Notes: generated by a model not told the origin, from the sequence alone. A stretch of DNA of 64,000 nucleotides from Guillardia theta CCMP2712 (GCF_000315625.1 NW_005434537.1:80631-144630), one strand, 5' to 3'; positions 1 to 37,960 are shown, counted from the stretch's first letter. A program made the numbers and translations.

Positions 1-744
1 CATCGATCCCAACCCCACAGATCTTCAGGCATGACATGACCAGGCCGAACGAATCCGCTGGGCAGCCATAGTGATTCTTGATCTTGTTGTCCAATGCATT
101 CTGTAAAAAGACCATGTTTAGGTCTACCGTGTTGTTCCAAATCGTAAGGCAATCACCAGAAAGCACACCCTCCCTGTGAAATTGGAACCCATTCTGTGTG
201 ATCATCTTGGAAGAATCATTGGCGATCTCGATCATTGCCGCATTCAAGCGATCGACCCTGACCTGATCCAGTGGTTTCAAGCTTGGTAATATAGATTGGA
301 TATATCTCGATGTCTGATTGTTCACACTCTTGTAAGTCGATGCAAGTTCTCTGGGGAGTGCGCACGTTTCCAATATCAGTTTGATGTCTGGCTGTGCGCT
401 GTCAAAGGACTCGGACATGACACCCGGCTTTGACTCGATCAAGTCAATGGCACCCAGGCGCCCAGTGGTGATGTGGATATCCTTGATATTCAGACCAAAG
501 CAAAGGATGTTGCTGCCGCTCTTGATGTCCGGGCCACTGCACATCGCCATGAATTGGATATGCTGTAACTCCATCATGTTGCAATCCGACTCAAAGACAA
601 ATACATTGTCCTTGTCACTCACCCTCTTGCCTGAAAAGCTGCTGTATGCATTGTGCCATGCAAATAGCTTCGATACCATGTTGCCCGGCCTGCTGTTCTG
701 CATCACATAGGCCCTCACAGCAACGCAAATTTATTTTCACTCAT
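1..744 (-). pseudogene. 5' part of second copy of the 699-aa transglutaminase-like gene (runs off window; 1-bp deletion near 722)
   Basis: Matches 32179-32923 except caacgc vs caaacgc; the indel may be a sequencing error. Confidence 0.7.
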
Positions 745-860
745 TATCTTATGAAATTATTCAATTTGTCCAATAATCTCGATAGTCTTACAATCTCCTT
801 GTTCTTTTTCATGTACGAACAGGGCCATTCTGAAATAGGTTCATTGGTAAAAGCAAAATC

Positions 861-1292
861 CTATTCAGAGTCCGAGCACCCATCAAAATCTTTTCTTTTT
901 TTGCAAAGCATTGCGTCTTTATCAGTCTCTAGAGAAGGGGATGATCTCTTTATCTCTATGATAAGCCTGCCAGGACCATCATCAAACTCAGTGTAATAAT
1001 CGATGTACAGGCCATTCCCAATCTCCACTCGATCGTCAACAACGAAATCTCTGGACTTCAACCATCGCGTGGCCATGACTTTCATGCTCAGGTATTCCCT
1101 ATTCATCATGGTAAAGGATGGCTGTATACCCAACAGAGGCTCGATCCGTTCGTCGCGCGAAAGGCTTATCGGTATGATATGGTCCTTGATTACTGATTCG
1201 ATGGTATCAAAATCATCCATGGCAATATTAAGACTCATCCTGAAGATTGTCTCGCCACGTGGTTTATTCATTTCTATCAAAAACACTTGCAA
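861..1292 (-). CDS. Hypothetical viral protein (copy of 33040-33471)
   Basis: 143-aa ORF identical in both copies. Confidence 0.65.
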   Translation of the reverse strand: MQVFLIEMNKPRGETIFRMSLNIAMDDFDTIESVIKDHIIPISLSRDERIEPLLGIQPSFTMMNREYLSMKVMATRWLKSRDFVVDDRVEIGNGLYIDYYTEFDDGPGRLIIEIKRSSPSLETDKDAMLCKKRKDFDGCSDSE

Positions 1293-1316
1293 ATCTTTTA
1301 ATACAACGCATGTCCA

Positions 1317-2084
1317 CTAAATTTCCATCCGGTCCTCATGAGATAGGTCCTCCATCTTCTTTAACTTTCGGATAAGGTTGGATGTCTTGGGGTGGCGGAA
1401 AATCAAGGTATGGTTATTCAAATGCCACCATGCATTGACAATAGACAATATGATGAATTCATCACTCTTGTCATTGTTGCTCACGTCTCTGAATAAGCCA
1501 CGGGTTCTGTAGATCTCGGTGAAGCATTGTTTAAGATGGATGGGAATGATATGGAAATAGTAGTTTCTGAAACTTACGCCATCGCACAAAGAGTGCGCAT
1601 CCCTGTGTCTTGGTAGGATCGACTTTTTCTCCATCAATACATTGAAGAGGCGCTTTACATTCCTAAGATCTGGAATTGCAACTTCCCCTGGAGCTATGGA
1701 GAATGCAATTAACTCGTCCAGTGGAAGTAAGTTTTTTTTCAATGCATGTTGTTGATGTAAAGTCTCTACACCCCCTGACTGAAAACGATTGCATCTCCTC
1801 AACCAATTGGTGCATCGACAGCAGGTTGTAAGACGCTCGTCGCTGTCACAGGTCTTGCAGAGAGATCGGATACACTCCCAAGTAAACGTGGTACTCAACC
1901 AGCTGACATCGAGATTCAAAAGAAATGTCTCGACTCTATGGCTCCTTCTATCCTCCTTGGAAACCAAGAGCATGCCACATATGACACATATATCACACGG
2001 CTCCACAAAATCAGGGATTAGCCTGATGTCAAGGAACGTCACCTCATCCATGCTCACCCCCTGCATCTTCGCACAATCGATCAA
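1317..2084 (-). CDS. CxxC-rich hypothetical protein (copy of 33496-34299)
   Basis: CVIC, CKTC, CCRC motifs; duplicated ORF. Confidence 0.65.
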   Translation of the reverse strand: MIDCAKMQGVSMDEVTFLDIRLIPDFVEPCDICVICGMLLVSKEDRRSHRVETFLLNLDVSWLSTTFTWECIRSLCKTCDSDERLTTCCRCTNWLRRCNRFQSGGVETLHQQHALKKNLLPLDELIAFSIAPGEVAIPDLRNVKRLFNVLMEKKSILPRHRDAHSLCDGVSFRNYYFHIIPIHLKQCFTEIYRTRGLFRDVSNNDKSDEFIILSIVNAWWHLNNHTLIFRHPKTSNLIRKLKKMEDLSHEDRMEI

Positions 2085-2144
2085 AATGTAAAGTACTTAT
2101 GAAAGCACCAGCACACCTCAGATATGACATTTTTTTTTAAAACT

Positions 2145-2541
2145 NNNNNNNNNNNNNNNNNNNNNNNNNNNNNNNNNNNNNNNNNNNNNNNNNNNNNNNN
2201 NNNNNNNNNNNNNNNNNNNNNNNNNNNNNNNNNNNNNNNNNNNNNNNNNNNNNNNNNNNNNNNNNNNNNNNNNNNNNNNNNNNNNNNNNNNNNNNNNNNN
2301 NNNNNNNNNNNNNNNNNNNNNNNNNNNNNNNNNNNNNNNNNNNNNNNNNNNNNNNNNNNNNNNNNNNNNNNNNNNNNNNNNNNNNNNNNNNNNNNNNNNN
2401 NNNNNNNNNNNNNNNNNNNNNNNNNNNNNNNNNNNNNNNNNNNNNNNNNNNNNNNNNNNNNNNNNNNNNNNNNNNNNNNNNNNNNNNNNNNNNNNNNNNN
2501 NNNNNNNNNNNNNNNNNNNNNNNNNNNNNNNNNNNNNNNNN
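2145..2541. other. Assembly gap (397 N); comparison with the second copy implies ~2.6 kb is missing
   Basis: N run; flank offsets to the second copy change from ~32.18 kb to 34424. Confidence 0.95.
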
Positions 2542-3537
2542 CCTGAGGCTAATGCCGAGGCTGAGGCTAGCCGTTCGTCTAGGAAGCGTAAGGCGGATCT
2601 TCGCGATGTGCCTAAGAATCCCAAGGAGTAAGTGGTTAGTTTAACCTACTGAAACCACATATAATTTCGACTTTGAATTTCGAATAAACTACTATATACA
2701 ACTAATCTGATGTCACGGCCGGTAGCATAATTGACCGTTAAAAGGAAGAATGAGTGATTTTAAAGGGTTGTAGATCAATTCCTACGGCTTAGCTTGATTC
2801 CCATAGGGTTAGATTCAATGTGGGCCTCAAGGTTTTAAATCCCGAGTTGATCGGCTTACAAGCCGGCTGACTGAGTAGTCTGCACGTGGTCGGTAGAATA
2901 AGTGATTGAAAAAAGAGACAATGAGTGGTTTTAAAGGGTTGTAGATCAATTCCCACGGCTTAGCTTGATTCCCATAGGGTTAGATTCAATGTGGGCCTTA
3001 AGGTTTTAAATCCCGAGCCGATCGGCTTACAAGCCGGCTGACTGAGTAGTCTGCACGTGGTCGGTAGAATAAGTGATTGAAAAAAGAGACAATGAGTGGT
3101 TTTAAAGGGTTGTAGATCAATTCCTACGGCTTAGCTTGATTCCCATAGGGTTAGATTGGATGTGGGCCTTAAGGTTTTAAATCCCGAGTCGATCGGCTTA
3201 CAGGCCGGCTGACTGAGTAGTCTGAACGCAGGTGGATGAATAAGTTATTGAAAAAAGGAAGAATGAGTGATTTTAAAGGGTTGTAGATCAATTCCTACGG
3301 CTTATCTTGATTCCCATAGGGTTAGATTGGATGTGGGCCTTAAGGTTTTAAATCCCGGAACTGCACCGGGTGGTCGCTTATTGCGGCAATGTCCGTTCTA
3401 CCTTCTTGGTCAGCACATATAGTGTACTGGGGTAAATTTCGTCGTGGAACCCTGCAGACTCACAAGAGCCTAGCTCTAAGAAATATATATCGATGGTCCT
3501 GCTCTCGTGGGGGCAGTGCTGGTTGAAATTTCCTAGT
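2542..3537 (+). repeat. Direct copy of ~36966-37961 (end of the 859-aa gene, 171-bp repeats, spacer)
   Basis: Identical sequence at offset 34424, diverging after ...aatttcctagt. Confidence 0.97.
2741..3357 (+). repeat. 171-bp tandem repeat, ~3.6 copies
   Basis: aatgagtg anchor at 2749, 2920, 3091, 3262. Confidence 0.95.
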
Positions 3538-4153
3538 GCATTGTTATAAAAAATCCACCCGAGCACTATACGACCATGTGCAAAGCTGACCAAAATTCGA
3601 ATTTTTGGGTTTGTGGACTTGCATGGGGGGTGGGTACGGTCTCTGGAACCATCTGCGAGGTCTAGAACGGCCTCTGTCATCAAAAAACACGTAAGCCTCT
3701 GAAAAGTTCAGGCCATGACTAAGTGAGCCCGGCAAAAGTTCATGTATCGAAGACCGGCCCCGGGCACTATGGGGACCCCAGATGGGAGCTATACTATCGA
3801 TTACAAGGCCCTAGAGCCAAGGTCTAAGATTTCTTGAAAAGTTCAGGAACGATCATGACCACCCCACCCCCTGCTCTGACCGCATGGGCATGGTAAAATA
3901 GGTGGTGTTGGGTGGTTGATGCGGCCAGTCGATGGGAGGCTGTAGGGAGGGGAGGGGAACGCTTAAAGCTCTTCCCCTGGGCCGTTTTCGATGCTTCTTG
4001 CATGTGTCCCGACTTACTTTGATGTCCTGGGATCGATTTTTGGGGTTAAATGTTGCGTTTCTGTGAGGATAACACATTTTTCTTATGATGCTCCCTATTT
4101 GACGGTTACATTGCATGCTCAGCCATTTTGTGATTTTTAACTTGCAGGGTGAA

Positions 4154-7100
4154 ATGTCTTCGGAGCGCAAGACAAGGAGCACCAAGAGGGTCAATGAAGA
4201 CAACTTCAAGCAAAATCTCGAGGCTGCAGGTGATTTCTTTGCGATTCACTGCTCTCGCTGCCCTATTTTTTTGAATTTGATATGAAAATGCATGCACTTT
4301 GGATGTGAAAATGCGTTTCTTGCGCTGAAACTTTGTGGCAGAGCCTGAGAAGAAGAAGCAATGCTATGGGCAAGCCCCAATCATCAAGAATTTGTCGGAG
4401 ATTGTCAAGGTCTCGATGCTTGAGTCCGACAAGACCAAGCCTGAGGCCAAGCTTTCGTGCATGCATGGGGAGGCGGGTCAAGCGTGTAAGGAGGATTATG
4501 GGGCTTGTGCATCCAAGGATCTACTCCCTTTTATTGCCCATTACAAATGCTTCGATGTTTCGAAGAAGGAGAAATTTCCAAGCCCCGATTTCCTGCATTT
4601 CTGGGGAACCGCAGGCTGGTCGTTGCATGGATTTTCTGCTACAATGAAGGTCGGTGGGGTGATGGAGAAGGTCGATGCAGAGAACTCATCTTGTCAGAAC
4701 CTTGTAAAGGCCTGCAAGTCACTGAGCTCTGTCAATCCCGATGAGATGAAAATCCAGCACATCCTCCGTGCGATGTTCTCGGTGGAGAGCCTGTGGTCCA
4801 AGATCCCTGTAGAGGACTACTGGAAGTTTCTAGCTGACCTGAGCACATCGCAAGAAGTCCTTGATACCGGGATGGATGATTTCGTCTTAATAGTCATGTG
4901 TAGTGCCCATGCCTACTTCATCCGGGAGTTTGATCGCAAGGACTTAAAGGATGACCATCTGAACATGTATCAATGGATGCATTGTACCTTACCAGAGCTC
5001 ATTTGCAAGGGGTTTAAGAATTGCAATGATCTCTACAATTCCTACATAAAGTGGATTTCGAAGAATTTTGACATTGTCGATGCAAAATCTATAGACATGT
5101 TGGGTTACATCAAGGTGATCGTCAATTACTATTGCTTCAGCTTCCTTCGATACTCGGACAAGTTCACCCGTGAATATATGAAGACAGTGGCTCCCAAGGG
5201 CATGAACGTCGATATTGTAGATAGTGCATGCCTTGTGATGAGGAATGTTCAGTACATGAGGTTCGAACCCATGGACTACATCCTCTTTGTGAATTACGAT
5301 ACCAAGTCAAAGGATGACTTCGATGCCATCTACCTCAAGCAGATCATCATGGTGGACAATCCCTGTTGCTCCAGCAAAGGATTCAACACACTCTATTTCT
5401 TCCATGGCGAATTCTTCAACGAGATGCAAGAGGTGTTTGGAGAGAGCAAGAAATTTAGCCTCTTCAGCATGGAACAGCTCTTTGGATCCTACTTCAAGGC
5501 CGGGAAGGATGTCAGATACTTGCAGGCAACCATGATGGTCCTCATGGATATGATAAGCAAGAACTCGATCTTTCAGGTAAAATCTCTTTGTTCTTATTGA
5601 ATCTGTTTATTGAATCTGCTTATTGAATCTGCTTATTGAATCTGCTTCTAGGTTAACTTGATTGGGAGTGTGGAAGAAGATTCATATCAGTACAACTTCT
5701 TGTTTGTACCTGCTCAAGATCCAAGAATCAACTTTTTGCATGATAATGTTGCCGGATCCATGAAGATCAACCAGATCGGTGCCATGAAGGAGGGGATGAA
5801 GACTATAGAGTCCACTGCTCTATTGAATGAGAAGTGTACCTTGAGGTTCTACCAGATCGACAGGAACAAGTTCAGCCCGTATGGTGTAATGAATGCCAAG
5901 ATCAGCTTGAAGGAGTCCAAGATCAGGGAGGGTTATAATGCCTTGGATTTCAGAGATGATATCGTACGCATCATCGAGAAACAGCTAAACCCGTACGCCA
6001 AACTCTGTGACAAGCCATGCTTCTCCAAGGATGCAAGGGACTTTACATCTGACATCAAGGAGAACTTCGACTTCAAGGCTATCAACGAGACCAAGGTCAC
6101 TGAGAATATGAAACCTATCAACCTGATAGAAGCCGTCTGCAAGGAGATATTTCCAGTGCTCATGAACATCAGCTGCGGGAGCGAGGTTGGAAAGATCATC
6201 TGCCGTATGAGTGTGCTGAATTTGAAGAGGATGATGAAATGCTTCTTCTTCGATAACAACTCTACGTTTCAACTTGTTAAGAGCAATGAAAATGCCTTCA
6301 GTTTTGTTGCTCAATGCTACAAGAAGAAAGAAATCGTTGAGATCGTCGAATCAGATGACAAATCAGGCAAGACAAAAATGGATGATCCCATTCCAAAGAA
6401 GAAGGCTGAAGAACCCAAAACTAGTCTTGAAGCCGGTGCAAAGAAGGATGAAAAGGCAAAGAAGAACCCGGAAGAGATTGCAAAGGAAGCTCCAGAGCAA
6501 GCTTTAAAGACTGATGCAAAGACTGATGCAAAGGAAATTCCAAAGACTGATTCAGAACCTGTGCAGGAAATTCCGGATTTCGATATGAAGGTGATCCAAG
6601 CCGCCATCAGCAAAAAGATTGCTAGTAGTGCATCAATGATCGATCCATCGAAGATGAATGAGATCTTCTCGGAATGCATGATGGACTGTTATTACGACGT
6701 CATCTCATCGGATCCAAATCTCAAGGCCATCGTCGAAGATATCAAGAAGGATGTCAGCAAGTACGAGATAGCCATCAAATTGCTAGAGAAGAAGATCCAT
6801 GATATCAAGTTGGAGATAAGGAATAAGAAGGTGAACGAAGATCTCAAAAAGGATATCTACATGCAGCAGGACGGTGATGATGAAATCGTCATCGGTCAAG
6901 GAAAGAAGTCGCTGAGCAAGGATGAAATGGTCCACCTGGCAAGGAAAGAAGGAGTTTCGACCGATGCCTACATCCAGGGATGGAGGAGCCAAGAATGGTA
7001 CTGTCAGTGCTCTGACACAAAGAAGATGGGCAGGGTCAGGCTCAGCCCTCTCTATGAAACTCCTGACATGAAGACCCATTGCTGCGAGACCTGCTACAAG

Positions 7101-7469
7101 AAGCAGCAACTTTACATACTTCTCAACGCCCCCTGGAAGTTCAAGTTCAGCGAGTTGAAAGAGATCGGCAATCATTACCCCCATCCAAAGAACTACGACC
7201 TTCTGAGGCCAATCGATGGCTATACCATCTTCCAGTGTGATTTGAACCTCCTAGACAAGGTCCTTACTCTGAATGCCTTCACTCTCCGGGACTTGATGAT
7301 CATGTACGTGTCCCATTTGATCAAGAAGAAGAAATACGCAAAGGAAGACTACAAGAAGGCATGGATTGATGTAACTTCCATGCCAAAGGAAAGGCTTGTC
7401 GATGCTTTGGAAGAAGTCAAGACCTACATCAGGAAATTTGCAGATTTCTACTACAAAATCGCTCGCTGA
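4154..7469 (+). CDS. Large spliced hypothetical protein (~1042 aa; exons 4154-4229, 4342-5576, 5652-7469) with Lys/Glu-rich middle and Cys cluster
   Basis: Two GT..AG introns (4230-4341 phase 1; 5577-5651 phase 0) join MSSERKTRSTKR... to ORFs 4335-5600 and 5658-7469 in frame. Confidence 0.75.
5594..5645 (+). repeat. 13-bp tandem repeat (ttattgaatctgy x4) inside an intron
   Basis: Directly visible. Confidence 0.95.
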
Positions 7470-7480
7470 GCTTTTTGATC

Positions 7481-7560
7481 TCTAACATCACTAGGATGAT
7501 TTCTAACATCACTAGGATGATTTCTAACATCACAAGGATGAGCTCTAACATCGAGAGGAT
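7481..7560 (+). repeat. 21-bp tandem repeat (tctaacatcactaggatgatt, ~4 degenerating copies) just after a stop codon
   Basis: Directly visible. Confidence 0.9.
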
Positions 7561-7623
7561 TATTTTTCCAGTTTTTTAGCTCGATCGAATACATATTTAA
7601 ACAATAGCTATCTGATTCAAAAC

Positions 7624-8763
7624 GTGAAAGAGAATATGAATATTCTTGTTTTGCTCATAATGATGATTGGCTTTCCATCAGGACCCGCCAAGGCTCAACG
7701 CAAGAACGCTACTTTGGTCGAGATGCAGAAGGCTATGAAGGAGCTGTCTTTGCAAGATTCTGCTGCAGCCCAAGAAGAGGAACAGGAGGAGAAGAAGAAG
7801 CAGCCTTCAAAAGTATCAATCAATGATGTTGAGTTGGTTGTGAAACGTTTGGCGGTGAGGATGTTTTTGTACACAATTTACTCAAAAATCCTTTGTGCTG
7901 ACATGACACCTGACAAACTTGGGGTACATCACGAGGTCCTCATGGACACCATCGGACGTGATGAGTTCAAGAATCTCACAACGGAACAGAGAACACAGGC
8001 GAACGACTTGCAGGATCAACTTGAAACCATGTTCGATGCGGAAGACAAGTGTTTCCCGTTCTTCCCAGTACCTTTCGTGAAGATTATCATGAAGAAGCTT
8101 ACGGATGAATGCGTCTACATCAAGGAAGAGGACATTCAGTCTGCTTTTCTCAATGAGTCACTCGCTTTCAGTGAGGATCTTTTGCGTTCCAAGGAGAACA
8201 TCATTTCTAGATGCACGGTCGAGCATCCTGTGATTCCGGATGCAACCCCTTTCCAGATCGCCAGCATGAAGAAGTTCAAGTTGATCCAGTTTCCAAGTGA
8301 TTACAAACCACGTGACCATTACTTTATCGTCCCTGTGAAGGATCGAGGCAATTTGAAGATCAAGATATGCAACAAGCCATTCCTTGCCAAATCGATGGAG
8401 TCGATCAATTCGGTTGTGCAGAACATCGTGAGCATCAGAAACTTGAAGGACAATGTCGAACGCTACAAGAAACTGTCTGAGCTGTATACCAAGGTCGCGG
8501 GCCACTTCTTCAACACATATGCTCTCGAGGAAGAGGACGTTCATGTGACCAGGAGAATCGTCAAGTACAAGTACGCCCAGAACAATGACGGGCGCATGAT
8601 ATGTGAACTCGTTGTCCCATACAACAACGATTATGTCGTTATGATCAGCAGGCATGTTGCCACTGGTCCTTGTGTCAATTTTACCCACAACTTCAACATC
8701 TATGAAGATGGACCCGTCCCCACAGATGGTATCTTCTACATCATGGACAACATCGTCTCATAG
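7624..8763 (+). CDS. Hypothetical protein (~379 aa; 5' structure uncertain, may contain introns)
   Basis: Long ORF with the same codon bias as the upstream gene. Confidence 0.7.
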   Translation: MKENMNILVLLIMMIGFPSGPAKAQRKNATLVEMQKAMKELSLQDSAAAQEEEQEEKKKQPSKVSINDVELVVKRLAVRMFLYTIYSKILCADMTPDKLGVHHEVLMDTIGRDEFKNLTTEQRTQANDLQDQLETMFDAEDKCFPFFPVPFVKIIMKKLTDECVYIKEEDIQSAFLNESLAFSEDLLRSKENIISRCTVEHPVIPDATPFQIASMKKFKLIQFPSDYKPRDHYFIVPVKDRGNLKIKICNKPFLAKSMESINSVVQNIVSIRNLKDNVERYKKLSELYTKVAGHFFNTYALEEEDVHVTRRIVKYKYAQNNDGRMICELVVPYNNDYVVMISRHVATGPCVNFTHNFNIYEDGPVPTDGIFYIMDNIVS

Positions 8764-8886
8764 ACAGGTTGTGTAGGCCTAGATTAGTGTCCTGGTTCCG
8801 TAATAAATTTCATAATGAGCAATTGTTTTTGTGTCTTGGGTTTGATATAAATTCAATGGGTGAGTCGTCCATACAAACAAAAAGGC

Positions 8887-28697: not shown

Positions 28698-30041
28698 GTG
28701 ACAATACAACACAAATTCATCCAAATCTGCGTAATGGGTATAAACGCGAGCCTGATCGGAACGATGGTAGCCAGAGATACGATGAGGAGCGAGAGGCTAG
28801 AGAGCCGAGAGATGAAGAGGAGATGCAATAAAAGGCACACGAGAGATTCTGCACAAGCAATGCATCAGATAAATCCCGACCTAGAAGACATGGATTCGGA
28901 AGAGACGAACGGTGGAAAGAACCTTCAGACAAACTGGTTTAGTCTAAGGAAGGGTTTCATATGCCCTATGACATTGGAGTTTGTGGACAAGGGGATGGAA
29001 GAATGTCCAATACTTCTGGAACGTTTTCAAGAATGCAAGCTTGAATTCAATGAGGGCTTGAAGTATGAGATGAAAGATTCGAATGGAGATATGAAGGTCT
29101 TCAACAAGGCAACCATCGATGGTTGCAAACACTCATTCTTTCCACTTGCACTGGCGATGCATTGGATGATCCACGGGATGAGATGCCCGTTGTGCAAGTT
29201 TGGGGATGACAGGAAGCTCTCTGTGTCCTGCCTTCCATTCCACTGTGCCCACAGGATGAAGAATCAAGTCAGGAAGATCAGGAACGAGATCGACGAAGAA
29301 GTCTTCGAGTCGGATCTTCAACTCGTACAGAACATTAGATTCGAGGACGATATGAACCTCCTGGGCAACATTTCGGGTGAGCACTTCCCTACCGCTATCA
29401 TGCTCGATGTCATTCCATTGCAGAATTGGGATATCATCAATGAGCATATGCAACTATATGTCACCCTTCACTATGAAAGTGATTTGATATCACAGGAGCG
29501 CGTATTGGCAACACTTGGTACACTAGGAGTTACCAGTCAATGGAGGCTCGAACGTTCATCAGAGGAGTCGACGACGTTCACGGTACAAGGTTGTTTATCT
29601 TTATGCGAAGATACTTTGATAATCGACGACCCTACATTTGGATTTATGAACGTTCCTCGTTCCCAGTGCCGCTTGATGTCCAAGATCAATCAAACGACCA
29701 AACCTTCTTACATCAGTTGCAGTCTGGTCTATCAAGATCCGATGATCACATTGAACGTCTGTAAATCGAACGATATCCCAGCCAAGTGCCCTGACAATGG
29801 CACATTGTTCTCCAGCTCGCAACTGATCATGGAAGAGAACGATGAGGCCGTATGCTGTGGATATCTAGAGACACAATGGATGCCGCTGGAGCTCTGCAAC
29901 CCATCCACTTTCGGTTATGGCATATTCTATCAAAGGGTTATTGTGGACAAACAGGCATTCATTACAAGAGTGACAAGGAGTAAGATCATACTGTATCTAG
30001 TTGAAAACGAGATGCTCATGAACGATAACCAGTTCTATTAG
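28698..30041 (+). CDS. RING/U-box-like domain protein (likely start 28734)
   Basis: FICPMTLEF ... GCKHSF ... RCPLCK. Confidence 0.65.
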   Translation: MTIQHKFIQICVMGINASLIGTMVARDTMRSERLESREMKRRCNKRHTRDSAQAMHQINPDLEDMDSEETNGGKNLQTNWFSLRKGFICPMTLEFVDKGMEECPILLERFQECKLEFNEGLKYEMKDSNGDMKVFNKATIDGCKHSFFPLALAMHWMIHGMRCPLCKFGDDRKLSVSCLPFHCAHRMKNQVRKIRNEIDEEVFESDLQLVQNIRFEDDMNLLGNISGEHFPTAIMLDVIPLQNWDIINEHMQLYVTLHYESDLISQERVLATLGTLGVTSQWRLERSSEESTTFTVQGCLSLCEDTLIIDDPTFGFMNVPRSQCRLMSKINQTTKPSYISCSLVYQDPMITLNVCKSNDIPAKCPDNGTLFSSSQLIMEENDEAVCCGYLETQWMPLELCNPSTFGYGIFYQRVIVDKQAFITRVTRSKIILYLVENEMLMNDNQFY

Positions 30042-30084
30042 TGTATTTATTTCAATACATTCAGATAATTATTAAACAATAGTG

Positions 30085-30771
30085 ATGCAGTCATCGAAGA
30101 ACATGTTCTCTCTGCAATCGCTCTGGCAGCAGTGCATAGACGCTGTAGAATTGCTCAGGAGATCCAGCGAAGCAGAGACGGGTGTCTTGAACGAGATAAA
30201 GCTAGAGACTGAGTTAGAGAGGAGATTAAGACTGCTCCATGAGCGCGAGAGGAGGGTTGAGTCGGGTGTAAAGGACATGGACGGCTTCAAAAGGATGCAG
30301 AGATGCAGGGATGCGCTATCGACGCTGGATAGGAAGGGTTGGCCAAGGTCATTCCATCAGAAGGAGTTCCATGACGACTTTCTAAGAGCTTGTGCAAGAT
30401 TGTTTTGGAAGACGGAGCCCAAGGGACAATTCAACAGGGACCATCAAAAGATATTGGAGCTCAATGGATGGGATCATCTTGCACAGGAGATCCTTGTAAG
30501 CACGCCGAGAAGGTTTGGAAAAACAATATCTGTCAGCATGTTTGCGGCTGCTATCATATTCTCGGCCCCGTCCATTGAAGTATCCATTTATTCCACGTGT
30601 AAGCGCATCTCACAGAAGCTGTTGAACAATATCCGGAAGTTCCTCCACCTAATCTACGAAGGGATGGACGCAGAACCCTTCAAGGTGATCCGCTCCAACA
30701 TGGAGGAGATCGTTCTCAAAGGAGACAATGGAAGCCAGGACGTCAGACTCGTCAATTCTTATCCATCCAAG
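30085..30771 (+). CDS. Terminase ATPase subunit, N-terminal (Walker A) exon
   Basis: SFHQ adenine-binding motif, ILVSTPRRFGKT Walker A (cf. herpes VPRRHGKT); ends NSYPSK at AAG|GTAATG; no Walker B or nuclease (ORF stop at 30822). Confidence 0.85.
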
Positions 30772-30823
30772 GTAATGCAGTGTGGTAGTTTAGGTTTTAT
30801 TTACACACTAACAAAATGCTAAC

Positions 30824-32923
30824 CTAATGCAGACAGAACTTGGTATTGACAGGAAGAGAATGGTTCTCAATCTCTTTCAAATCCATCCTTGGGACTACTT
30901 GTACTGCAATCAACTTGTTTCCTATCGTGCAAGTAAATCGGGTTGTCGGTTCCTCCTTCACCCAGGCATCCAACTTCTTCGCCTCGCTCTGCTTCTGTGT
31001 ACCATACACAAGTGGGATGGTGGGCAATGAGATGGGGTAGATAGATGACTTCAGCGGTGGGCTGACGTTCTTTTGAAAGACCTTGATGTAGGGGAGGATG
31101 GGAGGTGTTGCATACGTGGAGATGAGATTGAACTCGTCCATCTCTTCCTTGGATTGATTGATCTTTATGGCCTTGACACGCTCAGCCATCCCTGGCTTAA
31201 TGAGCTCTGATACGGGTATGCCAACCGTCTTTGTGTCGGGTAACATCAACATCTTATCACCAAGAATGCCCCCGATATGCCAAAAGACCCCATCAAGGTC
31301 CTTCATGTGCAGCCATACCTTGGATCTGCCAATGTCCGGGGCACAGTCATTGCAAAGCTGGGAATAGAATAGATCTTCAGTGACCAGATCATCCGATGCC
31401 TTGTTCTTCATAGCAAGCTCCTTCATCATCTTCTTCATCTCGATCACCTTGTTGTAAGAACGTTTCATCTTGTTCAGATCCGCATCCGGGACCCCGTGCG
31501 TAGATGCTTTCCCCGATTGTAACGAGAGCATGTAGACGGGCGCAGTCATCTCGGCCAGGTAAAGATTGCCTTTATGGCTCGTCATGGCAGCGCAATGCCC
31601 GCAGATTTCATACCCCACCCCGTCACCATTGGAGATACTCGACTTCTCCACGTTCGGGGCCTTTGCGCTCATGAGAAGCAGCTGGATACTAGAATCCTTG
31701 ATGTGACTGTAGAGCTGCTTGCACTGGACCAACCCTTTCCGGATGTCCTCTAGAGACCAATCCTGCATGATCGAGTATGATTTGATGGTCCCGGCCAGCT
31801 TCTCGTGATCACACGCCTTGGAAATACGGCTGGCGCTCTGACAGAAGCGATGCGCCATGCCAAAGCAGATCTTGAGTATGCTGGCATCGCCCTCGCAATC
31901 GTCATAGAAGATGCTGTCATGGTAGGACCTCTTGAAACCAGACAAGCCAGCCCCGTCCACCTTCAAACCCCTCGAGATCAAAAGCCTTTTCAGGATCGCC
32001 GCGCTGTAGGCCTTGTCCTCATAGACATTGTCCGACATGGGTGTGCTTATGTCTTCACTCATCTCAAAGGATCCGGTGTTGGGATCCTTCTTGAGATCGG
32101 ATGCATAGGTGATCGCAGTGGACACGTAACAAGGGAATGCGCGCATAAAGGAGTCTGCGGTATTTGCATCAATGACCTCATCGATCCCAACCCCACAGAT
32201 CTTCAGGCATGACATGACCAGGCCGAACGAATCCGCTGGGCAGCCATAGTGATTCTTGATCTTGTTGTCCAATGCATTCTGTAAAAAGACCATGTTTAGG
32301 TCTACCGTGTTGTTCCAAATCGTAAGGCAATCACCAGAAAGCACACCCTCCCTGTGAAATTGGAACCCATTCTGTGTGATCATCTTGGAAGAATCATTGG
32401 CGATCTCGATCATTGCCGCATTCAAGCGATCGACCCTGACCTGATCCAGTGGTTTCAAGCTTGGTAATATAGATTGGATATATCTCGATGTCTGATTGTT
32501 CACACTCTTGTAAGTCGATGCAAGTTCTCTGGGGAGTGCGCACGTTTCCAATATCAGTTTGACGTCTGGCTGTGCGCTGTCAAAGGACTCGGACATGACA
32601 CCCGGCTTTGACTCGATCAAGTCAATGGCACCCAGGCGCCCAGTGGTGATGTGGATATCCTTGATATTCAGACCAAAGCAAAGGATGTTGCTGCCGCTCT
32701 TGATGTCCGGGCCACTGCACATCGCCATGAATTGGATATGCTGTAACTCCATCATGTTGCAATCCGACTCAAAGACAAATACATTGTCCTTGTCACTCAC
32801 CCTCTTGCCTGAAAAGCTGCTGTATGCATTGTGCCATGCAAATAGCTTCGATACCATGTTGCCCGGCCTGCTGTTCTGCATCACATAGGCCCTCACAGCA
32901 AACGCAAATTTATTTTCACTCAT
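30824..32923 (-). CDS. 699-aa protein with transglutaminase-like Cys-His-acid motifs
   Basis: YDDCEGDA ... CGHCAA ... YLAEMT order and spacing. Confidence 0.55.
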   Translation of the reverse strand: MSENKFAFAVRAYVMQNSRPGNMVSKLFAWHNAYSSFSGKRVSDKDNVFVFESDCNMMELQHIQFMAMCSGPDIKSGSNILCFGLNIKDIHITTGRLGAIDLIESKPGVMSESFDSAQPDVKLILETCALPRELASTYKSVNNQTSRYIQSILPSLKPLDQVRVDRLNAAMIEIANDSSKMITQNGFQFHREGVLSGDCLTIWNNTVDLNMVFLQNALDNKIKNHYGCPADSFGLVMSCLKICGVGIDEVIDANTADSFMRAFPCYVSTAITYASDLKKDPNTGSFEMSEDISTPMSDNVYEDKAYSAAILKRLLISRGLKVDGAGLSGFKRSYHDSIFYDDCEGDASILKICFGMAHRFCQSASRISKACDHEKLAGTIKSYSIMQDWSLEDIRKGLVQCKQLYSHIKDSSIQLLLMSAKAPNVEKSSISNGDGVGYEICGHCAAMTSHKGNLYLAEMTAPVYMLSLQSGKASTHGVPDADLNKMKRSYNKVIEMKKMMKELAMKNKASDDLVTEDLFYSQLCNDCAPDIGRSKVWLHMKDLDGVFWHIGGILGDKMLMLPDTKTVGIPVSELIKPGMAERVKAIKINQSKEEMDEFNLISTYATPPILPYIKVFQKNVSPPLKSSIYPISLPTIPLVYGTQKQSEAKKLDAWVKEEPTTRFTCTIGNKLIAVQVVPRMDLKEIENHSLPVNTKFCLH

Positions 32924-33039
32924 TATCTTATGAAATTATTCAATTTGTCCAATAATCTCGATAGTCTTACAATCTCCTTGTTCTTTTTCATGTACGAACA
33001 GGGCCATTCTGAAATAGGTTCATTGGTAAAAGCAAAATC

Positions 33040-33471
33040 CTATTCAGAGTCCGAGCACCCATCAAAATCTTTTCTTTTTTTGCAAAGCATTGCGTCTTTA
33101 TCAGTCTCTAGAGAAGGGGATGATCTCTTTATCTCTATGATAAGCCTGCCAGGACCATCATCAAACTCAGTGTAATAATCGATGTACAGGCCATTCCCAA
33201 TCTCCACTCGATCGTCAACAACGAAATCTCTGGACTTCAACCATCGCGTGGCCATGACTTTCATGCTCAGGTATTCCCTATTCATCATGGTAAAGGATGG
33301 CTGTATACCCAACAGAGGCTCGATCCGTTCGTCGCGCGAAAGGCTTATCGGTATGATATGGTCCTTGATTACTGATTCGATGGTATCAAAATCATCCATG
33401 GCAATATTAAGACTCATCCTGAAGATTGTCTCGCCACGTGGTTTATTCATTTCTATCAAAAACACTTGCAA
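33040..33471 (-). CDS. Hypothetical protein (likely ATG at 33450)
   Basis: ORF conserved in both copies; TATTAAA 26 nt upstream of the ATG. Confidence 0.65.
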   Translation of the reverse strand: MQVFLIEMNKPRGETIFRMSLNIAMDDFDTIESVIKDHIIPISLSRDERIEPLLGIQPSFTMMNREYLSMKVMATRWLKSRDFVVDDRVEIGNGLYIDYYTEFDDGPGRLIIEIKRSSPSLETDKDAMLCKKRKDFDGCSDSE

Positions 33472-33495
33472 ATCTTTTAATACAACGCATGTCCA

Positions 33496-34299
33496 CTAAA
33501 TTTCCATCCGGTCCTCATGAGATAGGTCCTCCATCTTCTTTAACTTTCGGATAAGGTTGGATGTCTTGGGGTGGCGGAAAATCAAGGTATGGTTATTCAA
33601 ATGCCACCATGCATTGACAATAGACAATATGATGAATTCATCACTCTTGTCATTGTTGCTCACGTCTCTGAATAAGCCACGGGTTCTGTAGATCTCGGTG
33701 AAGCATTGTTTAAGATGGATGGGAATGATATGGAAATAGTAGTTTCTGAAACTTACGCCATCGCACAAAGACTGCGCATCCCTGTGTCTTGGTAGGATCG
33801 ACTTTTTCTCCATCAATACATTGAAGAGGCGCTTTACATTCCTAAGATCTGGAATTGCAACTTCCCCTGGAGCTATGGAGAATGCAATTAACTCGTCCAG
33901 TGGAAGTAAGTTTTTTTTCAATGCATGTTGTTGATGTAAAGTCTCTACACCCCCTGACTGAAAACGATTGCATCTCCTCAACCAATTGGTGCATCGACAG
34001 CAGGTTGTAAGACGCTCGTCGCTGTCACAGGTCTTGCAGAGAGATCGGATACACTCCCAAGTAAACGTGGTACTCAACCAGCTGACATCGAGATTCAAAA
34101 GAAATGTCTCGACTCTATGGCTCCTTCTATCCTCCTTGGAAACCAAGAGCATGCCACATATGACACATATATCACACGGCTCCACAAAATCAGGGATTAG
34201 CCTGATGTCAAGGAACGTCACCTCATCCATGCTCACCCCCTGCATCTTCGCACAAATCGATTCAAAAATGTAAAAGTTACTTATGAAAGCACCAAGCAC
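33496..34299 (-). CDS. CxxC-rich (putative zinc-binding) hypothetical protein
   Basis: CVIC, CKTC, CCRC motifs. Confidence 0.65.
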   Translation of the reverse strand: MLGAFISNFYIFESICAKMQGVSMDEVTFLDIRLIPDFVEPCDICVICGMLLVSKEDRRSHRVETFLLNLDVSWLSTTFTWECIRSLCKTCDSDERLTTCCRCTNWLRRCNRFQSGGVETLHQQHALKKNLLPLDELIAFSIAPGEVAIPDLRNVKRLFNVLMEKKSILPRHRDAQSLCDGVSFRNYYFHIIPIHLKQCFTEIYRTRGLFRDVSNNDKSDEFIILSIVNAWWHLNNHTLIFRHPKTSNLIRKLKKMEDLSHEDRMEI

Positions 34300-34475
34300 A
34301 CCTCAGAATATTGACATTTTTTTTAAAAACTTGACATTGTATTTAAGTAAGACTGCCCAGGACTTGGCGTTAAATCGAGTTATAGTAGTATTCGCATTTT
34401 CCACACACCAAACAGTTCAATCACTTTGAAAAGTTCGAAAACTTTAGTCGTTTTTATTCAGTAGCGCGACCCATC

Positions 34476-37055
34476 ATGTCGATGGAAACCAGGAGCAAGC
34501 GATCAACCCCGATTCAGGAGCCTATTGAAACCCTTCAGGGTCATAGGAGCTCAGGCGTCGCGGGTCAGCTTACTATGGGAGACTCCAGACGCGGCAGACT
34601 CAACCCCAAATCGGGTGCAGCGACGTCGAAGGATCAGAAGGGCAAGTCGGGTTCAGCGACATCGAAGGATCAGAAGGGCAAGTCGGGTGCAGCGACGTCG
34701 AAGGATCAGCACCAACCCCCCACCCTTGCAGAAAGGCAAGGGGGCGTGCGTGGTGGTAGACAGATTAAGGCAAAAGGTTTTCCACCCGTCAAGCCTCAAT
34801 CCGAAGGCCGTCAACTCGACGCACCTCCAGGACTCAAAAGTGTCCTTCGCCTTGCAAATAGCACTATGAAAAAGAAGGCTAAAGCCTCTAAGCAGGCTAA
34901 AGCCTCTAAGCAGGCTAAAGCGTCTGAGCAGGTTGAAGAGCCTGAGCAGGTCGAAGAGGCTGAGCAGGTCGAAGAGGCTGAGCAGGTCGAAGAGTCTGAG
35001 CAGGCTGCAGCGTCTTCTAGCAACGCACCTGTAGCTCTTACTGAGCAGCAGATCGAGGAGCAGAAGAAGGCTGATGCAGAGAAGGCGGCTGCTTTGAAGC
35101 AGTTGAAGACTGATCTGATGGCCGAGGCTGTGAAGCTCATCAGTGTGCAGACTTTGCAGGAAGCAAGGGAAATTCTCCTCAATATCCAGCAGATGGCTCT
35201 TCAGCGTGCTGCAACCGACATTGCTGTCAAAATTGATAGCTTGTCCGATGAAGACAAGGCGAAGGCATTTAGCAGCATCCAACGAAGAATCAACTTCTTG
35301 TCCAACAAACCACGCACTCCTAGGAAGGGGCGCGAAGCGGCAGGGGGTGGAGACAATGAGCGCAGAGTTGCAAAGAGGAAGATCGTGGCTAGGAAGGACT
35401 CCGACCATTCGGAACCGGCCGCTCATCGCGTCGTCGTTCGTTTTGACTCTGAGTTTATTACGATCAAAGAAGATGGAAAGGCACTTGGGTTCAAGCAAAA
35501 TGGGATCAACGTGCTCTCGCACTGCTTGAATAAGGACAGTGTCTCCATCCTCAGGCTTCTTGTATTGTCCATGCTGAAGAGAACCGTCTACGCGAATTTC
35601 AAAATTCCCTTGAGTTATTTTTCACCAGAGGATGGGGACTTCACTCCTGCTATCAAGGCTGTCGCAAAACCCCTTATTGAGGGTGGGGAAGCAAAGACTT
35701 TCCTTAGACTCGAGTATAACCTCAACAACCTGTACATCACTCTGCAGCCTCTCGACTTCAAGGTCTTCCATATGTCTACCCTGGTCAATCGTGAGATGAT
35801 CAAGGCCAGTGATGAGGTGTGGGAAAAAGCTCTTGAACTTCAGGGGGATGACAATGATGCAGTGGCTGATGCATCCACCGATAAGTCGAAGAGGCGACTG
35901 GGGAAGCCTGTAGCGGAAGGGAATGTCACGCTTTACAACTTTATCAAGGCGGCCCTCCCTAACCTTAGGTACGAAAAGAGACCGTCCGCCCCCTGCATGA
36001 TGTGCATGATCGTCAACTCGATGATTTCCGTCAATGTTGACAATGTAAACAGACATCGCCAGGCATGGTGCTGCTGCAATCAGACGGACTTGGCTGTCTT
36101 GAGGTGTCCTTTCAAGGACACAACCATCAACTTCACCATCTGCACCCATTACATCACCCTTCTTCACACGGAGAAGTGCGATAACAACGGTGTTATTACC
36201 TGGTGGGAGAATGAGAACCTTCTTCAGACGCTTATCGAAGATTTCCTTCTTATGGACGGACCCGAATCCGACATGCTGTACGCAAGCAACAGCTTTGTCC
36301 CTGTCAGGGCTGAAATCACCGATTGTAACTGCAACCAACGGTGGATCAAGTTCAACCCCGAGAAACGGGCCAACAAGGAAGGAAAGCTCAAAAATCTTGT
36401 GGCTAGATCCAATCTGCTTCAGCCATTCGAGGAGAAGGACGGCGACAAGCACGGTGAGCTCAATAAGTTGTTCAACCAATACTTGGTGTCCTTATTGAAG
36501 AACCCGAAGGGCATGACCAGAAACCCCGTCATGGCCAACAAGAACAAGAACAAGGGAGGTCCAAGGCCGGAGGTGCAGGAGAAGGAGATCCGCTCCGAGC
36601 AAGATATCCCCAAGCCCCCCCGGAAGAAGCAGAGGAGGATCGATTTTTCTTCTGCTCTTGCTGTTGCTGCTTCTGCTGTTGCTGCTTCTGCTGTTGCTGC
36701 TTCTGCTTCTGCTTCTGCTTCTGCTGATCATGCTTCTGCTGATCATGCTGCTGCTATCGCTGAAGAGAAGAAGCGTGCCGATGAGGCACAGGCAGAAAAC
36801 GCAAGGTTGAAAGCTATGCTTGACCAGCTCAAGGCTCAGATTGCCGCGTCTGCGGATGGACCTGTGTCTGGACCTGTGTCTGGACCTGTGTCTGGAGCTG
36901 TGGTTGAGGCTGATGCTGCTTCTGCTGCTGAGCCTGTGGCTGCTGAGCCTGTGGCTAATGCCGAGGCTGAGGCTAATGCCGAGGCTGAGGCTAGCCGTTC
37001 GTCTAGGAAGCGTAAGGCGGATCTTCGCGATGTGCCTAAGAATCCCAAGGAGTAA
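34476..37055 (+). CDS. 859-aa protein with low-complexity repeat arms and a Cys-rich core
   Basis: Peptide repeats SGAATSKDQKGK, KASKQA, EQVEEA, GPVS; CMMC/WCCC core; basic NLS-like stretches. Confidence 0.8.
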   Translation: MSMETRSKRSTPIQEPIETLQGHRSSGVAGQLTMGDSRRGRLNPKSGAATSKDQKGKSGSATSKDQKGKSGAATSKDQHQPPTLAERQGGVRGGRQIKAKGFPPVKPQSEGRQLDAPPGLKSVLRLANSTMKKKAKASKQAKASKQAKASEQVEEPEQVEEAEQVEEAEQVEESEQAAASSSNAPVALTEQQIEEQKKADAEKAAALKQLKTDLMAEAVKLISVQTLQEAREILLNIQQMALQRAATDIAVKIDSLSDEDKAKAFSSIQRRINFLSNKPRTPRKGREAAGGGDNERRVAKRKIVARKDSDHSEPAAHRVVVRFDSEFITIKEDGKALGFKQNGINVLSHCLNKDSVSILRLLVLSMLKRTVYANFKIPLSYFSPEDGDFTPAIKAVAKPLIEGGEAKTFLRLEYNLNNLYITLQPLDFKVFHMSTLVNREMIKASDEVWEKALELQGDDNDAVADASTDKSKRRLGKPVAEGNVTLYNFIKAALPNLRYEKRPSAPCMMCMIVNSMISVNVDNVNRHRQAWCCCNQTDLAVLRCPFKDTTINFTICTHYITLLHTEKCDNNGVITWWENENLLQTLIEDFLLMDGPESDMLYASNSFVPVRAEITDCNCNQRWIKFNPEKRANKEGKLKNLVARSNLLQPFEEKDGDKHGELNKLFNQYLVSLLKNPKGMTRNPVMANKNKNKGGPRPEVQEKEIRSEQDIPKPPRKKQRRIDFSSALAVAASAVAASAVAASASASASADHASADHAAAIAEEKKRADEAQAENARLKAMLDQLKAQIAASADGPVSGPVSGPVSGAVVEADAASAAEPVAAEPVANAEAEANAEAEASRSSRKRKADLRDVPKNPKE

Positions 37056-37164
37056 GTGGTTAGTTTAACCTACTGAAACCACATATAATTTCGACTTTGA
37101 ATTTCGAATAAACTACTATATACAACTAATCTGATGTCACGGCCGGTAGCATAATTGACCGTTA

Positions 37165-37781
37165 AAAGGAAGAATGAGTGATTTTAAAGGGTTGTAGATC
37201 AATTCCTACGGCTTAGCTTGATTCCCATAGGGTTAGATTCAATGTGGGCCTCAAGGTTTTAAATCCCGAGTTGATCGGCTTACAAGCCGGCTGACTGAGT
37301 AGTCTGCACGTGGTCGGTAGAATAAGTGATTGAAAAAAGAGACAATGAGTGGTTTTAAAGGGTTGTAGATCAATTCCCACGGCTTAGCTTGATTCCCATA
37401 GGGTTAGATTCAATGTGGGCCTTAAGGTTTTAAATCCCGAGCCGATCGGCTTACAAGCCGGCTGACTGAGTAGTCTGCACGTGGTCGGTAGAATAAGTGA
37501 TTGAAAAAAGAGACAATGAGTGGTTTTAAAGGGTTGTAGATCAATTCCTACGGCTTAGCTTGATTCCCATAGGGTTAGATTGGATGTGGGCCTTAAGGTT
37601 TTAAATCCCGAGTCGATCGGCTTACAGGCCGGCTGACTGAGTAGTCTGAACGCAGGTGGATGAATAAGTTATTGAAAAAAGGAAGAATGAGTGATTTTAA
37701 AGGGTTGTAGATCAATTCCTACGGCTTATCTTGATTCCCATAGGGTTAGATTGGATGTGGGCCTTAAGGTTTTAAATCCCG
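37165..37781 (+). repeat. 171-bp tandem repeat, second locus
   Basis: Identical to 2741-3357. Confidence 0.95.
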
Positions 37782-37960
37782 GAACTGCACCGGGTGGTCG
37801 CTTATTGCGGCAATGTCCGTTCTACCTTCTTGGTCAGCACATATAGTGTACTGGGGTAAATTTCGTCGTGGAACCCTGCAGACTCACAAGAGCCTAGCTC
37901 TAAGAAATATATATCGATGGTCCTGCTCTCGTGGGGGCAGTGCTGGTTGAAATTTCCTAG

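Follow-up and report, generated by a model that had tools for sequence, protein, structure and literature searches.

Does the virus-like DNA in the assembly of Guillardia theta CCMP2712 (NW_005434537.1:80631-144630; the whole stretch of 64,000 nucleotides is here called the window) belong to a provirus that could still act, or to one that has been broken? A sequence-only reading had described positions 1-37960 as a largely intact, possibly active mirusvirus-like segment with little decay. The stretch is present in sequencing runs from five studies, and it is young DNA of a herpes-related virus of single-celled eukaryotes, likely a mirusvirus, in what is probably a chromosome of a cryptophyte alga. 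The assignment as mirusvirus-like and endogenous is supported by a terminase split at a conserved donor, by mirusvirus-type neighbours and by a unique part at about single-copy depth. The claim of an intact and possibly active segment is not supported, in view of an inversion, a fold-back junction, truncated genes, a 10.5-kb duplication, the lack of a second terminase exon and scant transcription. The segment is best read as a recent, defective endogenous mirusvirus mosaic, and other copies of part of it are better preserved in the organism's DNA. Since its genes are cut, flipped and duplicated, the present copy is unlikely to make virus.

The viral DNA is laid out as satellite / A / B1 / S (inverted) / C / B2 / A / satellite, where B1 is 3538-11511, S is 11512-23049, C is 23050-25614, B2 is 25626-27485 and A is 27486-37961. 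Repeat A, of 10,476 bp, is present twice, and its two copies border on a 323-bp satellite where they face outwards. The other copy has its start within the gene at 27292-28155 and adjoins the satellite, which is what the loose read end before 27486 consists of; its position directly upstream rests on the assembly. The end of this upstream copy (1-3537) contains a scaffold gap of 397 N (2145-2541), with 1-2144 equal to 32179-34331 at 99.35% and 2543-3537 equal to 36967-37961 at 100%, and most differences between the A copies are single-base indels near the gap. A 171-bp tandem repeat (3.6 copies) lies at 37173-37781 and again at 2749-3357. Contig depth over A was 170 compared with 92.5, about twice single copy, with alternative letters near 50%. 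A head-to-tail tandem or circle of the full 34.4 kb was rejected, as 25,965-27,106 is single-copy and the second copy starts at 27486.

Downstream, the array of the 323-bp, 65% GC satellite (37961-59748) is interrupted by mobile elements, namely a short-TIR insertion (38856-41617), a Ty1/copia element (43472-58654, TSD TCACG) and a chromodomain Ty3 element nested within the latter (49403-55486). The host LTR elements reported earlier are therefore present, but they mark no clean host flank because they lie inside the satellite with more virus-like genes beyond it, at about 60-64 kb; within the window, no gene of the host was seen connected to the viral DNA. A putative nuclease is also found past the satellite at 62.5-63.9 kb, and a sequence search of solved structures with it gave nothing significant. 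Scanning with a satellite motif gave no match.

The GC-rich block (11512-25614, 14.1 kb), at which GC steps from 0.45 to 0.58, lies between two truncated genes of a block of 45-47% GC. Its larger piece, S, is inverted (reverse strand), and in a contig from a different copy the end of 11512-13919 is followed directly by 23050. The inversion splits a gene of about 1,750 aa, whose function was not recognised: its N-terminal 802 aa (11512-13919, reverse strand) and its middle 855 aa (23050-25614, forward strand) lie at the two ends of the block; they match residues 7-782 (67%) and 785-1639 (65%) of the protein P0121. The two halves match adjoining parts of three proteins of 1,703-1,772 aa, and the 802-aa piece also corresponds to the N-terminal half of each of P0122 and P0123. 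The gene lacks about 115 residues at its C-terminus; other copies continue past 25614. An Atlas search with the ~1,750-aa protein gave no usable match. An orphan 3' end of 50 codons (22897-23049, reverse strand) is open to its stop and lacks its start, the sequence upstream being the reverse strand of the long gene.

Genes are also cut at the edges of the block. A secreted-type protein with GCC2/GCC3 (ephrin-receptor-like) Cys repeats (8887-11511, forward strand; PF07699, E 6e-48), repeats also found in 3/14 related loci scanned, is cut at the upstream junction, beyond which its reading frame continues on the opposite strand of the neighbouring gene. At the other edge, a perfect 26-bp fold-back palindrome (25600-25625), the only perfect loop-free one with arms of at least 10 bp in 1-38000, joins the block to the lower-GC block and cuts a second secreted-type protein gene (25626-27149, reverse strand). 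This gene is single copy (depth 9-12x) and transcribed at a low level, with RNA contigs in 3/3 RNA-type contig runs, and its relative in the metagenomic contig L001 is open for about 160 codons further, up to that contig's end. Altogether, junctions interrupt at least four genes, plus a fifth within the other copy of repeat A. Loose read ends were found at 23050, 25614 and 27486. Further loose ends lie at 19078, 19982 and 25162; short matches at 12059/12100 and 24799/24832 were attributed to chance and disregarded. The segment is not an intact giant endogenous viral element, which would be colinear with unbroken genes and defined ends.

Raw DNA reads place the unique part at about single-copy depth, a check suggested with the sequence-only reading. 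In run X17 the depth was about 30-40x over 17.4-25.4 kb, 12x over 25,965-27,106 and 20-30x over 27.7-34.5 kb, with the same steps in X18. This corresponds to about 1x for B2, 2x for A and 3x for S and C, although depth may be biased, the raw DNA coming from ChIP-seq runs whose reads are 38 bases long; run X1 may be the source of the assembly. The reads thus contain about two further copies of the GC-rich block, in which the long gene is unbroken. We tested 80 differences between copies (the 40 listed of 96 and the 40 listed of 271), and 50 of the 65 coding ones were synonymous, compared with 28% expected (p 4e-16); in the long gene it was 35 of 37. No nonsense codons occurred among the GC-block differences examined. 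The mostly synonymous differences and the unbroken long gene in sister copies indicate that the damage is recent. The earlier description of little decay is right about age but was not confirmed for the structure, where genes are broken and duplicated.

It is probable that the locus is a young, rearranged piece of virus DNA, likely from mirusviruses with a terminase predicted to be trans-spliced, that repair of a DNA break, and not an integrase, likely placed in a cryptophyte chromosome, and that it would make no virions alone. A virus replicating in the nucleus would have exposed free linear DNA ends there, and end-joining repair may have stitched several pieces into a break in the satellite array; the junctions within genes, the snap-back palindrome and the templated duplication would be its traces. 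The pieces of 45-47% GC and of 58% GC may come from two viral genotypes, because only the latter have diverged sister copies. The GC-rich block includes a gene of 48% GC, and composition alone is therefore no proof of two viruses. The event would be recent, because the long gene was maintained by selection almost up to the time at which it broke.

It is improbable, in our view, that the scrambling took place during viral replication, giving a defective genome from one or two viruses that then integrated in one piece; the same defective insert would result, and only the place of scrambling differs. Concatemeric replication and recombination also give fold-back junctions and long direct duplications such as those found here, and pieces of two genotypes could meet in a co-infected nucleus. 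However, upstream A starts mid-gene directly on satellite and downstream A ends on satellite, which means that the outer joints, at least, arose at the array itself. For the inner junctions, only single-copy depth was seen.

Assembly errors merging several co-resident, more intact copies are a still less probable source of the junctions. Such errors would be in keeping with the gap of 397 N where about 2.6 kb is expected, with read-end-type errors beside it, with the existence of at least three copies of the GC-rich block, and with two inner junctions not spanned by reads: 3537/3538 and 11511/11512 have no read support, and 23049/23050 is seen only from the side of other copies. In contrast, a DNA contig free of differences and an RNA contig from another study both cross the junction at 25614, the depth steps coincide with junctions, and self-comparison lists no repeat of at least 60 bases at 11.5 or 23.05 kb that could cause a mis-join.

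The affiliation of the virus is read in part from its terminase, whose exon 1 (30085-30771, forward strand) carries the Walker A motif PRRFGKT without Walker B and ends at a splice donor at 30772 (AAG|GTAATG); only this N-terminal exon is present. We found 1,032 homologues of similar length, and SYPSK or SYPSE occurs at the same point in all 20 inspected (the window's own included), and immediately beyond it the similarity between the aligned relatives ceases. For 77 of 80 loci the match extended as far as the end of the exon, and GT follows this codon in 76 of them; among longer homologues 6 of 13 were inspected, all 6 diverging after SYPSK. The ATPase exon thus ends at a canonical donor, with the remainder predicted to be encoded elsewhere, as in mirusviruses with trans-spliced terminases. 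No Walker B-like motif occurs in any frame of the window, and no second terminase exon was recognised in it; a cis acceptor about 60 bases behind the donor was considered, and the sequence downstream has no Walker B motif. A guessed degenerate pattern for the second exon gave no match and carries no weight. Among the RNA reads and contig pieces listed from four RNA-type runs, none lay on the exon. The closest named relatives are from cryptophytes, Hanusia phi (86%) and Baffinella, the former standing with the window in a starred 4-row set.

The earlier description of the terminase as herpes-type agrees with its AlphaFold model (pLDDT 89.3). Among the 14 BFVD matches at E<=0.001, 11 were herpesvirus proteins (TMq 0.44-0.60), 2 phage terminases (0.33-0.35) and 1 unnamed, whereas a PDB search ranked by E-value placed T4 gp17 first, ahead of the herpes-type terminase complex. 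The model suggests that the terminase is closer to those of herpesviruses than of phages, a call made by fold comparison and not by phylogeny with phage outgroups. PHROGs named terminase families weakly (E 0.003-0.03), for 28, 13 and 7 of 120 members. Neither the exon nor its 120-row profile had a significant match when solved structures were searched by sequence, and no relative was found in viral_contigs.

The genes adjoining the exon are of mirusvirus type, and L001 has the same four-gene order, plus histone H3. The RING-like zinc-finger gene (28734-30041, forward strand) was confirmed, but weakly (zf-RING_2, E 0.24; relatives in 7/80 loci). Spliceosomal introns had also been proposed, and RNA contigs of 3 runs contain two GT-AG splices in this gene, 29377-29423 and 29377-29495, both of which break the frame (220 or 303 aa spliced compared with 435 aa unspliced). 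Two further GT-AG introns (4230-4341 and 5577-5651) are predictions; they bring the 1,042-aa gene at 4154-7469 (forward strand), whose function was not recognised, into one open frame. Convergent behind the terminase exon is a 699-aa protein (30824-32923, reverse strand), whose DCE and GH motifs make a Cys-His enzyme possible. It matches the family profile built without it (E 2e-9; hhalign 54 compared with at most 25 in 20 shuffles), and of the 31 loci with enough sequence to contain it, 14 have the family in this convergent position after terminase exon 1. The family profile found nothing significant in a sequence search of solved structures, and an Atlas search with the protein gave only leads under 0.9. 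A Cys-rich protein (33496-34245, reverse strand) has relatives near the terminase exon, with tblastn matches in 6/80 loci.

Within the GC-rich block, a heliorhodopsin (14834-16117, reverse strand; PF18761, E 4e-12) was recognised as reported, and its Schiff-base helix aligns with that of the 48C12 heliorhodopsin. As assembled, it has an in-frame templated duplication at about 15667-15783, near the end of helix 2, with a 61-bp repeat (75 letters here compared with 24 in another copy). A candidate TATA-binding-protein-like protein (17739-18788, reverse strand) has a low-confidence model (pLDDT 44.7), for which Foldseek gave TBP chains the highest probabilities (up to 0.99) but E of only 0.02-0.07. 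Of the nucleases named earlier, we could confirm one DnaQ/RNase H-like 3'-5' exonuclease (20757-21254, forward strand; PF13482, E 1.7e-15). The dense, unrecognised ORFs were borne out, as 25 genes or gene pieces cover 87% of 3538-37961. No tRNA genes were found in the window.

It is the terminase exon and its neighbours that carry the assignment to the phylum, because no capsid, portal, triplex 1/2 or jelly-roll protein was recognised among the window's ORFs with Pfam, PHROGs and NCBIfam, libraries without mirusvirus profiles that would probably miss them; structure prediction covered two proteins only, the terminase exon and the TBP-like candidate. The mirusvirus core accessory set comprises heliorhodopsin, RING ligase, TBP, histones, Snf2 and Snf7 (PMC12768974). 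In the window heliorhodopsin is clear, RING weak and the TBP-like match of low confidence; TBP was found in 4/14 related loci scanned and histone H3 in 1/14, and neither Snf2 nor Snf7 was seen. Finding an A32 ATPase or double-jelly-roll capsid would have argued for Nucleocytoviricota; neither had a Pfam match among 36 ORFs of the window, and the A32-type Walker A motif GxxGSGK[ST] is absent from all its six frames. We consider it very improbable that the DNA comes from other eukaryotic Duplodnaviria (herpes-like, outside Mirusviricota) or from a viral contaminant of the culture. The best fold matches are herpesvirus proteins, in a library (BFVD) that may lack mirusvirus proteins, and no capsid gene was seen; however, the heliorhodopsin, RING, TBP and histone neighbours are those of the mirusvirus core set, and a contaminant is hard to reconcile with presence in runs of five studies, joining to an LTR-carrying satellite and near-single-copy depth of the unique part.

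RNA was scant, with 9 reads on 17.1 kb from 764 million letters in one deep run. RNA contigs lie essentially only over 25.5-30 kb, with one 244-base piece in the GC-rich block; the runs used are RNA-type, no run containing the stretch is catalogued as RNA, and we do not take missing contigs over the GC-rich block and the terminase to prove that these are silent. The reading as a provirus segment that is largely intact and possibly active would fit the high coding density, the lack of stop codons among the differences tested, the partial transcription and splicing and the native gene order around the terminase, but is the least probable reading given at least four cut genes, one inverted block, a window lacking the second terminase exon, and observed splices that break the frame.

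How does the rearranged mirusvirus piece compare with known systems? In most mirusviruses outside Demutovirales and Soporavirales, the ATPase and nuclease halves are encoded apart and trans-spliced, Soporavirales thus being excluded from the mostly trans-splicing orders (PMC12768974). The window resembles the trans-splicing Mirusviricota (Okeanovirales, Styxvirales and cryptic orders; PMC12768974) in its lone ATPase half with a canonical donor before Walker B, in its heliorhodopsin, RING-like protein, spliceosomal introns and few annotatable genes, and in the TBP and histone H3 of its related loci. Okeanovirales and Styxvirales are further characterised by a lack of PolB and RNA polymerase and by their place in the MCP-terminase-portal tree. 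The episomes and the one chromosomal integrant in the database of PMC12768974 are all Soporavirales; unlike these, the window DNA is apparently chromosomal, fragmentary and scrambled, and its trans-splicing is predicted. With the Aurantiochytrium episome and integrant (Soporavirales), as described in PMC12768974 and PMC10827195, it shares occurrence in a cultured protist and spliceosomal introns, but those are whole genomes, one making particles, whereas the DNA here is a broken mosaic. Like exon 1 of herpesvirus terminases (UL15 and BGRF1 type, and the split terminases of alloherpesviruses), it has an N-terminal ATPase fold split before Walker B; unlike herpesviruses, it has only 12-18% identity, no other recognised herpesvirus gene and a likely protist host. 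Mirusvirus DNA in cryptophyte assemblies is already published, and in this the window is alike: PMC10827195 gives 18 capsid homologues from three assemblies (MCP clade E03), judged recent by its authors. The window, which may belong to that clade or to one of those assemblies, adds junction structure, copy number, a selection test and RNA data to the capsid-gene-based account in the passages of that paper considered here. In the literature searched, we found no publication combining mirusvirus, cryptophyte, integration and rearrangement.

Metagenomes are the main source of knowledge on the mirusvirus orders whose terminases are trans-spliced. Here the exon of a split terminase lies in an organism for which DNA and RNA runs exist, which links such a virus to a likely cryptophyte host and indicates where the partner exon can be sought. 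The locus also shows the order in which such DNA decays: cutting, flipping and duplication come first and point mutations pile up later, so that a dead insert with open frames and high coding density can look intact. If the unbroken sister copies are a whole genome, the culture becomes an experimental system. There is an outside chance that the organism also carries a complete nuclear trans-splicing mirusvirus at about two copies per genome, as provirus or episome. The sister copies still under purifying selection would then be that virus, the scrambled locus would be what its replication, still under way or only just past, left behind, and the 323-bp array of 65% GC could be a terminal repeat of the virus instead of a satellite of the host. 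If true, this would provide a cultured host for direct tests of terminase trans-splicing and of polymerase-free replication of a large virus.

We examined genes, layout, copy number and expression across positions 1-37,960, and found that the open reading frame at 30085-30771 represents the first exon (exon 1) of a split terminase whose partner exon lies outside the window. It encodes 229 residues with a PRRFGKT motif and a C-terminal SYPSK followed by GTAATG, remained unnamed by Pfam, PHROGs and a PDB sequence search, and has 1,032 homologues close to it in length. All 20 homologues examined (the window's own included) show SYPSK or SYPSE at the corresponding position, directly after which similarity among the aligned relatives drops. 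The structural model, built from 120 sequences, reached a pLDDT of 89.3. Among its 14 matches to predicted viral structures at E<=0.001, 11 were herpesvirus proteins (TMq 0.44-0.60; best match, Ranid herpesvirus 3), two were phage terminases (0.33-0.35) and one was unnamed. The top 11 matches in a PDB structure search were all terminases, with T4 gp17 first by E-value and the herpes simplex terminase complex 6m5u having the top TM-score (0.48). A GT directly follows the exon in 76 of the 77 matches that reach its end across 80 metagenomic loci, and none of the window's reading frames contains a Walker B-like motif. Terminases of most mirusviruses outside Demutovirales and Soporavirales show the same kind of split and are trans-spliced (PMC12768974). 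Together, the fold, the conserved donor, the missing Walker B and these precedents identify exon 1, so the herpes-type terminase of the sequence-only reading is borne out for this exon only. In three Baffinella gene models (P0134, P0135 and P0138) exon 1 is fused to unrelated sequence beyond SYPSK, as expected if gene callers seek a nonexistent cis acceptor.

The heliorhodopsin recognized from sequence is also clear. At 14834-16117, it exceeds 48C12 by about 110 residues in the C-terminal half and also has a long loop near the N terminus. At contig level, a stretch that measures 24 bases in another copy spans 75 bases here, most of them duplicating neighbouring sequence. The proposed RING-like protein had a weak match, as did a TBP-like call in the window. 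The four-gene order of 25.6-30.8 kb recurs in metagenomic locus L001 (77% terminase identity), which also has histone H3. In the 14 of 80 loci scanned (118 selected ORFs), TBP was found in four and GCC2/GCC3 repeats in three. Among the 31 loci with 1.5 kb or more of room behind the terminase exon, 14 have a member of the 699-aa gene's family there. The family's members, of about 700 aa (30824-32923 here; also in L002, L003, L010, L012, L018, L044 and L066), are convergent and directly behind exon 1. They have invariant YxxD, DC and H residues and may represent a Cys-His enzyme so far unannotated, of papain or transglutaminase type, that is linked to the packaging gene.

The layout of the segment is rearranged. 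GC content is 58% in the block 11512-25614 versus 45% and 47% in its flanks, and the genes flanking this GC-rich block both point inward and are both cut. The repeat protein of the left flank reads on into the reverse strand of the neighbouring gene, and the gene at 25626-27149 ends where its L001 relative remains open for about 160 further codons. An ORF at 11512-13919 (minus strand) matches residues 7-782, and another at 23050-25614 (plus strand) residues 785-1639, of a single 1,754-aa protein; both halves of this long gene match two further proteins likewise. Since a contig from another copy joins the halves and other copies extend beyond 25614, the piece 11512-23049 is inverted here and the long gene is broken at two points. 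On its right side the block ends in a perfect 26-bp fold-back, the sole such palindrome in 1-38000. Contigs of run X1 have loose ends at 19982 and 25162, which may mark an insertion or breakpoint in another copy.

Self-comparison showed that 1-2144 repeats 32179-34331 and that 2543-3537 repeats 36967-37961. Raw DNA reads gave three depth levels across the viral segment: in run X17, 17.4-25.4 kb lies at about 30-40x, 25,965-27,106 at 12x and 27.7-34.5 kb at 20-30x, with the same steps in run X18. One-copy depth is about 10x if the X1 contigs (98 million letters) approximate the genome, a rough figure because the libraries are ChIP-seq. Contig depth is 92.5 across 25518-27515 versus 170 from 27486 onward, and the loose end before 27486 is 323-bp satellite sequence. 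From the depth levels, the contig step and this loose end, only 27486-37961 (repeat A) is doubled; within 27486-34500, the contig shows just 2 sites that distinguish its two copies.

Capture by repair is the likely origin of this arrangement: free viral DNA, probably of two genotypes, would have been joined into a satellite array by end-joining. This is argued by junctions that fall mid-gene, by snap-back and templated scars, and by the viral part itself, which yielded no recognisable integrase or terminal structure. Snap-back and templated scars mark microhomology-mediated repair. Scrambling before integration, which would place the inversion and breaks in the incoming DNA, seems unlikely; satellite DNA meets both outer ends, one of them mid-gene. 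Mis-assembly, which would make the joints artefactual, is quite improbable, and the fold-back junction is spanned by both a DNA contig and an RNA contig of another study. We give very little credence to a virus other than a mirusvirus or to a contaminant; the functions seen in the window and related loci match core functions listed by PMC12768974. An intact provirus is hardly credible, and the earlier description of the segment as largely intact fails on the inverted block, the twice-broken long gene, the cut flanking genes and the partner terminase exon outside the window.

A 2026 RNA run of 764 million letters placed 9 reads on 17.1 kb. Contigs of three runs, whose type (RNA) was guessed, cover essentially 25.5-30.0 kb, the single-copy truncated gene included, plus a lone 244-base piece at 22.2 kb. 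GT-AG splices within the RING-like gene confirm that these contigs are RNA and bear out the presence of introns read from sequence, although neither splice preserves the frame (220 or 303 aa versus 435). At 29377-29495, one donor and two acceptors inside an otherwise open viral ORF are apparently used by the host spliceosome, with the frame lost in both products; this is possibly cryptic splicing of viral transcripts. No RNA pieces were listed on the terminase exon in four RNA-type runs. The locus is in part weakly transcribed, nothing in the four runs examined points to a lytic programme, and together with the few reads and frame-breaking splices this speaks against the suggestion that the element is possibly active.

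The 323-bp array (37961-59748) has a GC content equal to that of the genes beyond it and runs of G, C, T and A that may resemble herpesvirus packaging signals; it could be a viral repeat, and had no match in viral_contigs. Inserted in it is a Ty1/copia element (43472-58654) with identical 491-bp LTRs and the target-site duplication TCACG. Nested within this element is a chromodomain Ty3 element, whose 183-bp LTRs are also identical and which has a single open ORF of 1,682 aa; both elements are very young. A 2.76-kb insertion at 38856-41617, bounded by 11-bp terminal inverted repeats and lacking a long ORF, is possibly a non-autonomous DNA transposon. Beyond the satellite, 59990-64000 holds further virus-like genes at 65% GC, one of them encoding a multi-pass membrane protein of 551 aa (60881-62533, minus strand); a more extensive GC-rich viral region may begin here. 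An ORF in this distal region, a putative nuclease with FEN1/XPG-like motifs, had no library match, and its 3' part seems to shift frame near 62.9 kb. Of the nucleases named earlier, one exonuclease is clear.

Mirusvirus DNA in cryptophyte genomes was already known, PMC10827195 describing capsid genes in three cryptophyte assemblies. A later preprint (10.1101/2025.04.19.649669) places endogenous mirusvirus regions mainly outside Demutovirales, and a term search of PMC12220804 returned no mention of mirusviruses. Our searches of literature available without subscription found no account of either this junction structure or a split-terminase exon from a cultured host. The nearest named relative of the exon is a Hanusia phi protein (86%), which groups with the window in a four-row starred set, from 50 selected rows analysed with no outgroup. 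Baffinella proteins are also among its nearest named relatives, and those of the long gene are likewise from Hanusia. As these relatives are all from cryptophytes, the host is likely a cryptophyte.

Roughly 60% of raw reads carry the alternative letters in the GC-rich block, as expected for two sister copies; this pair, in which the long gene is unbroken, could belong to a whole virus, although we find this doubtful. From 80 listed differences (40 of 96 and 40 of 271), we set aside 13 that fell beyond the ORFs considered and two within repeat A, leaving 65. Fifty of these were synonymous versus 28% expected (p 4e-16), including 35 of the 37 tested in the long gene, and none of the 65 created a new stop codon. 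The copies have thus diverged under purifying selection, and the long gene therefore broke recently.
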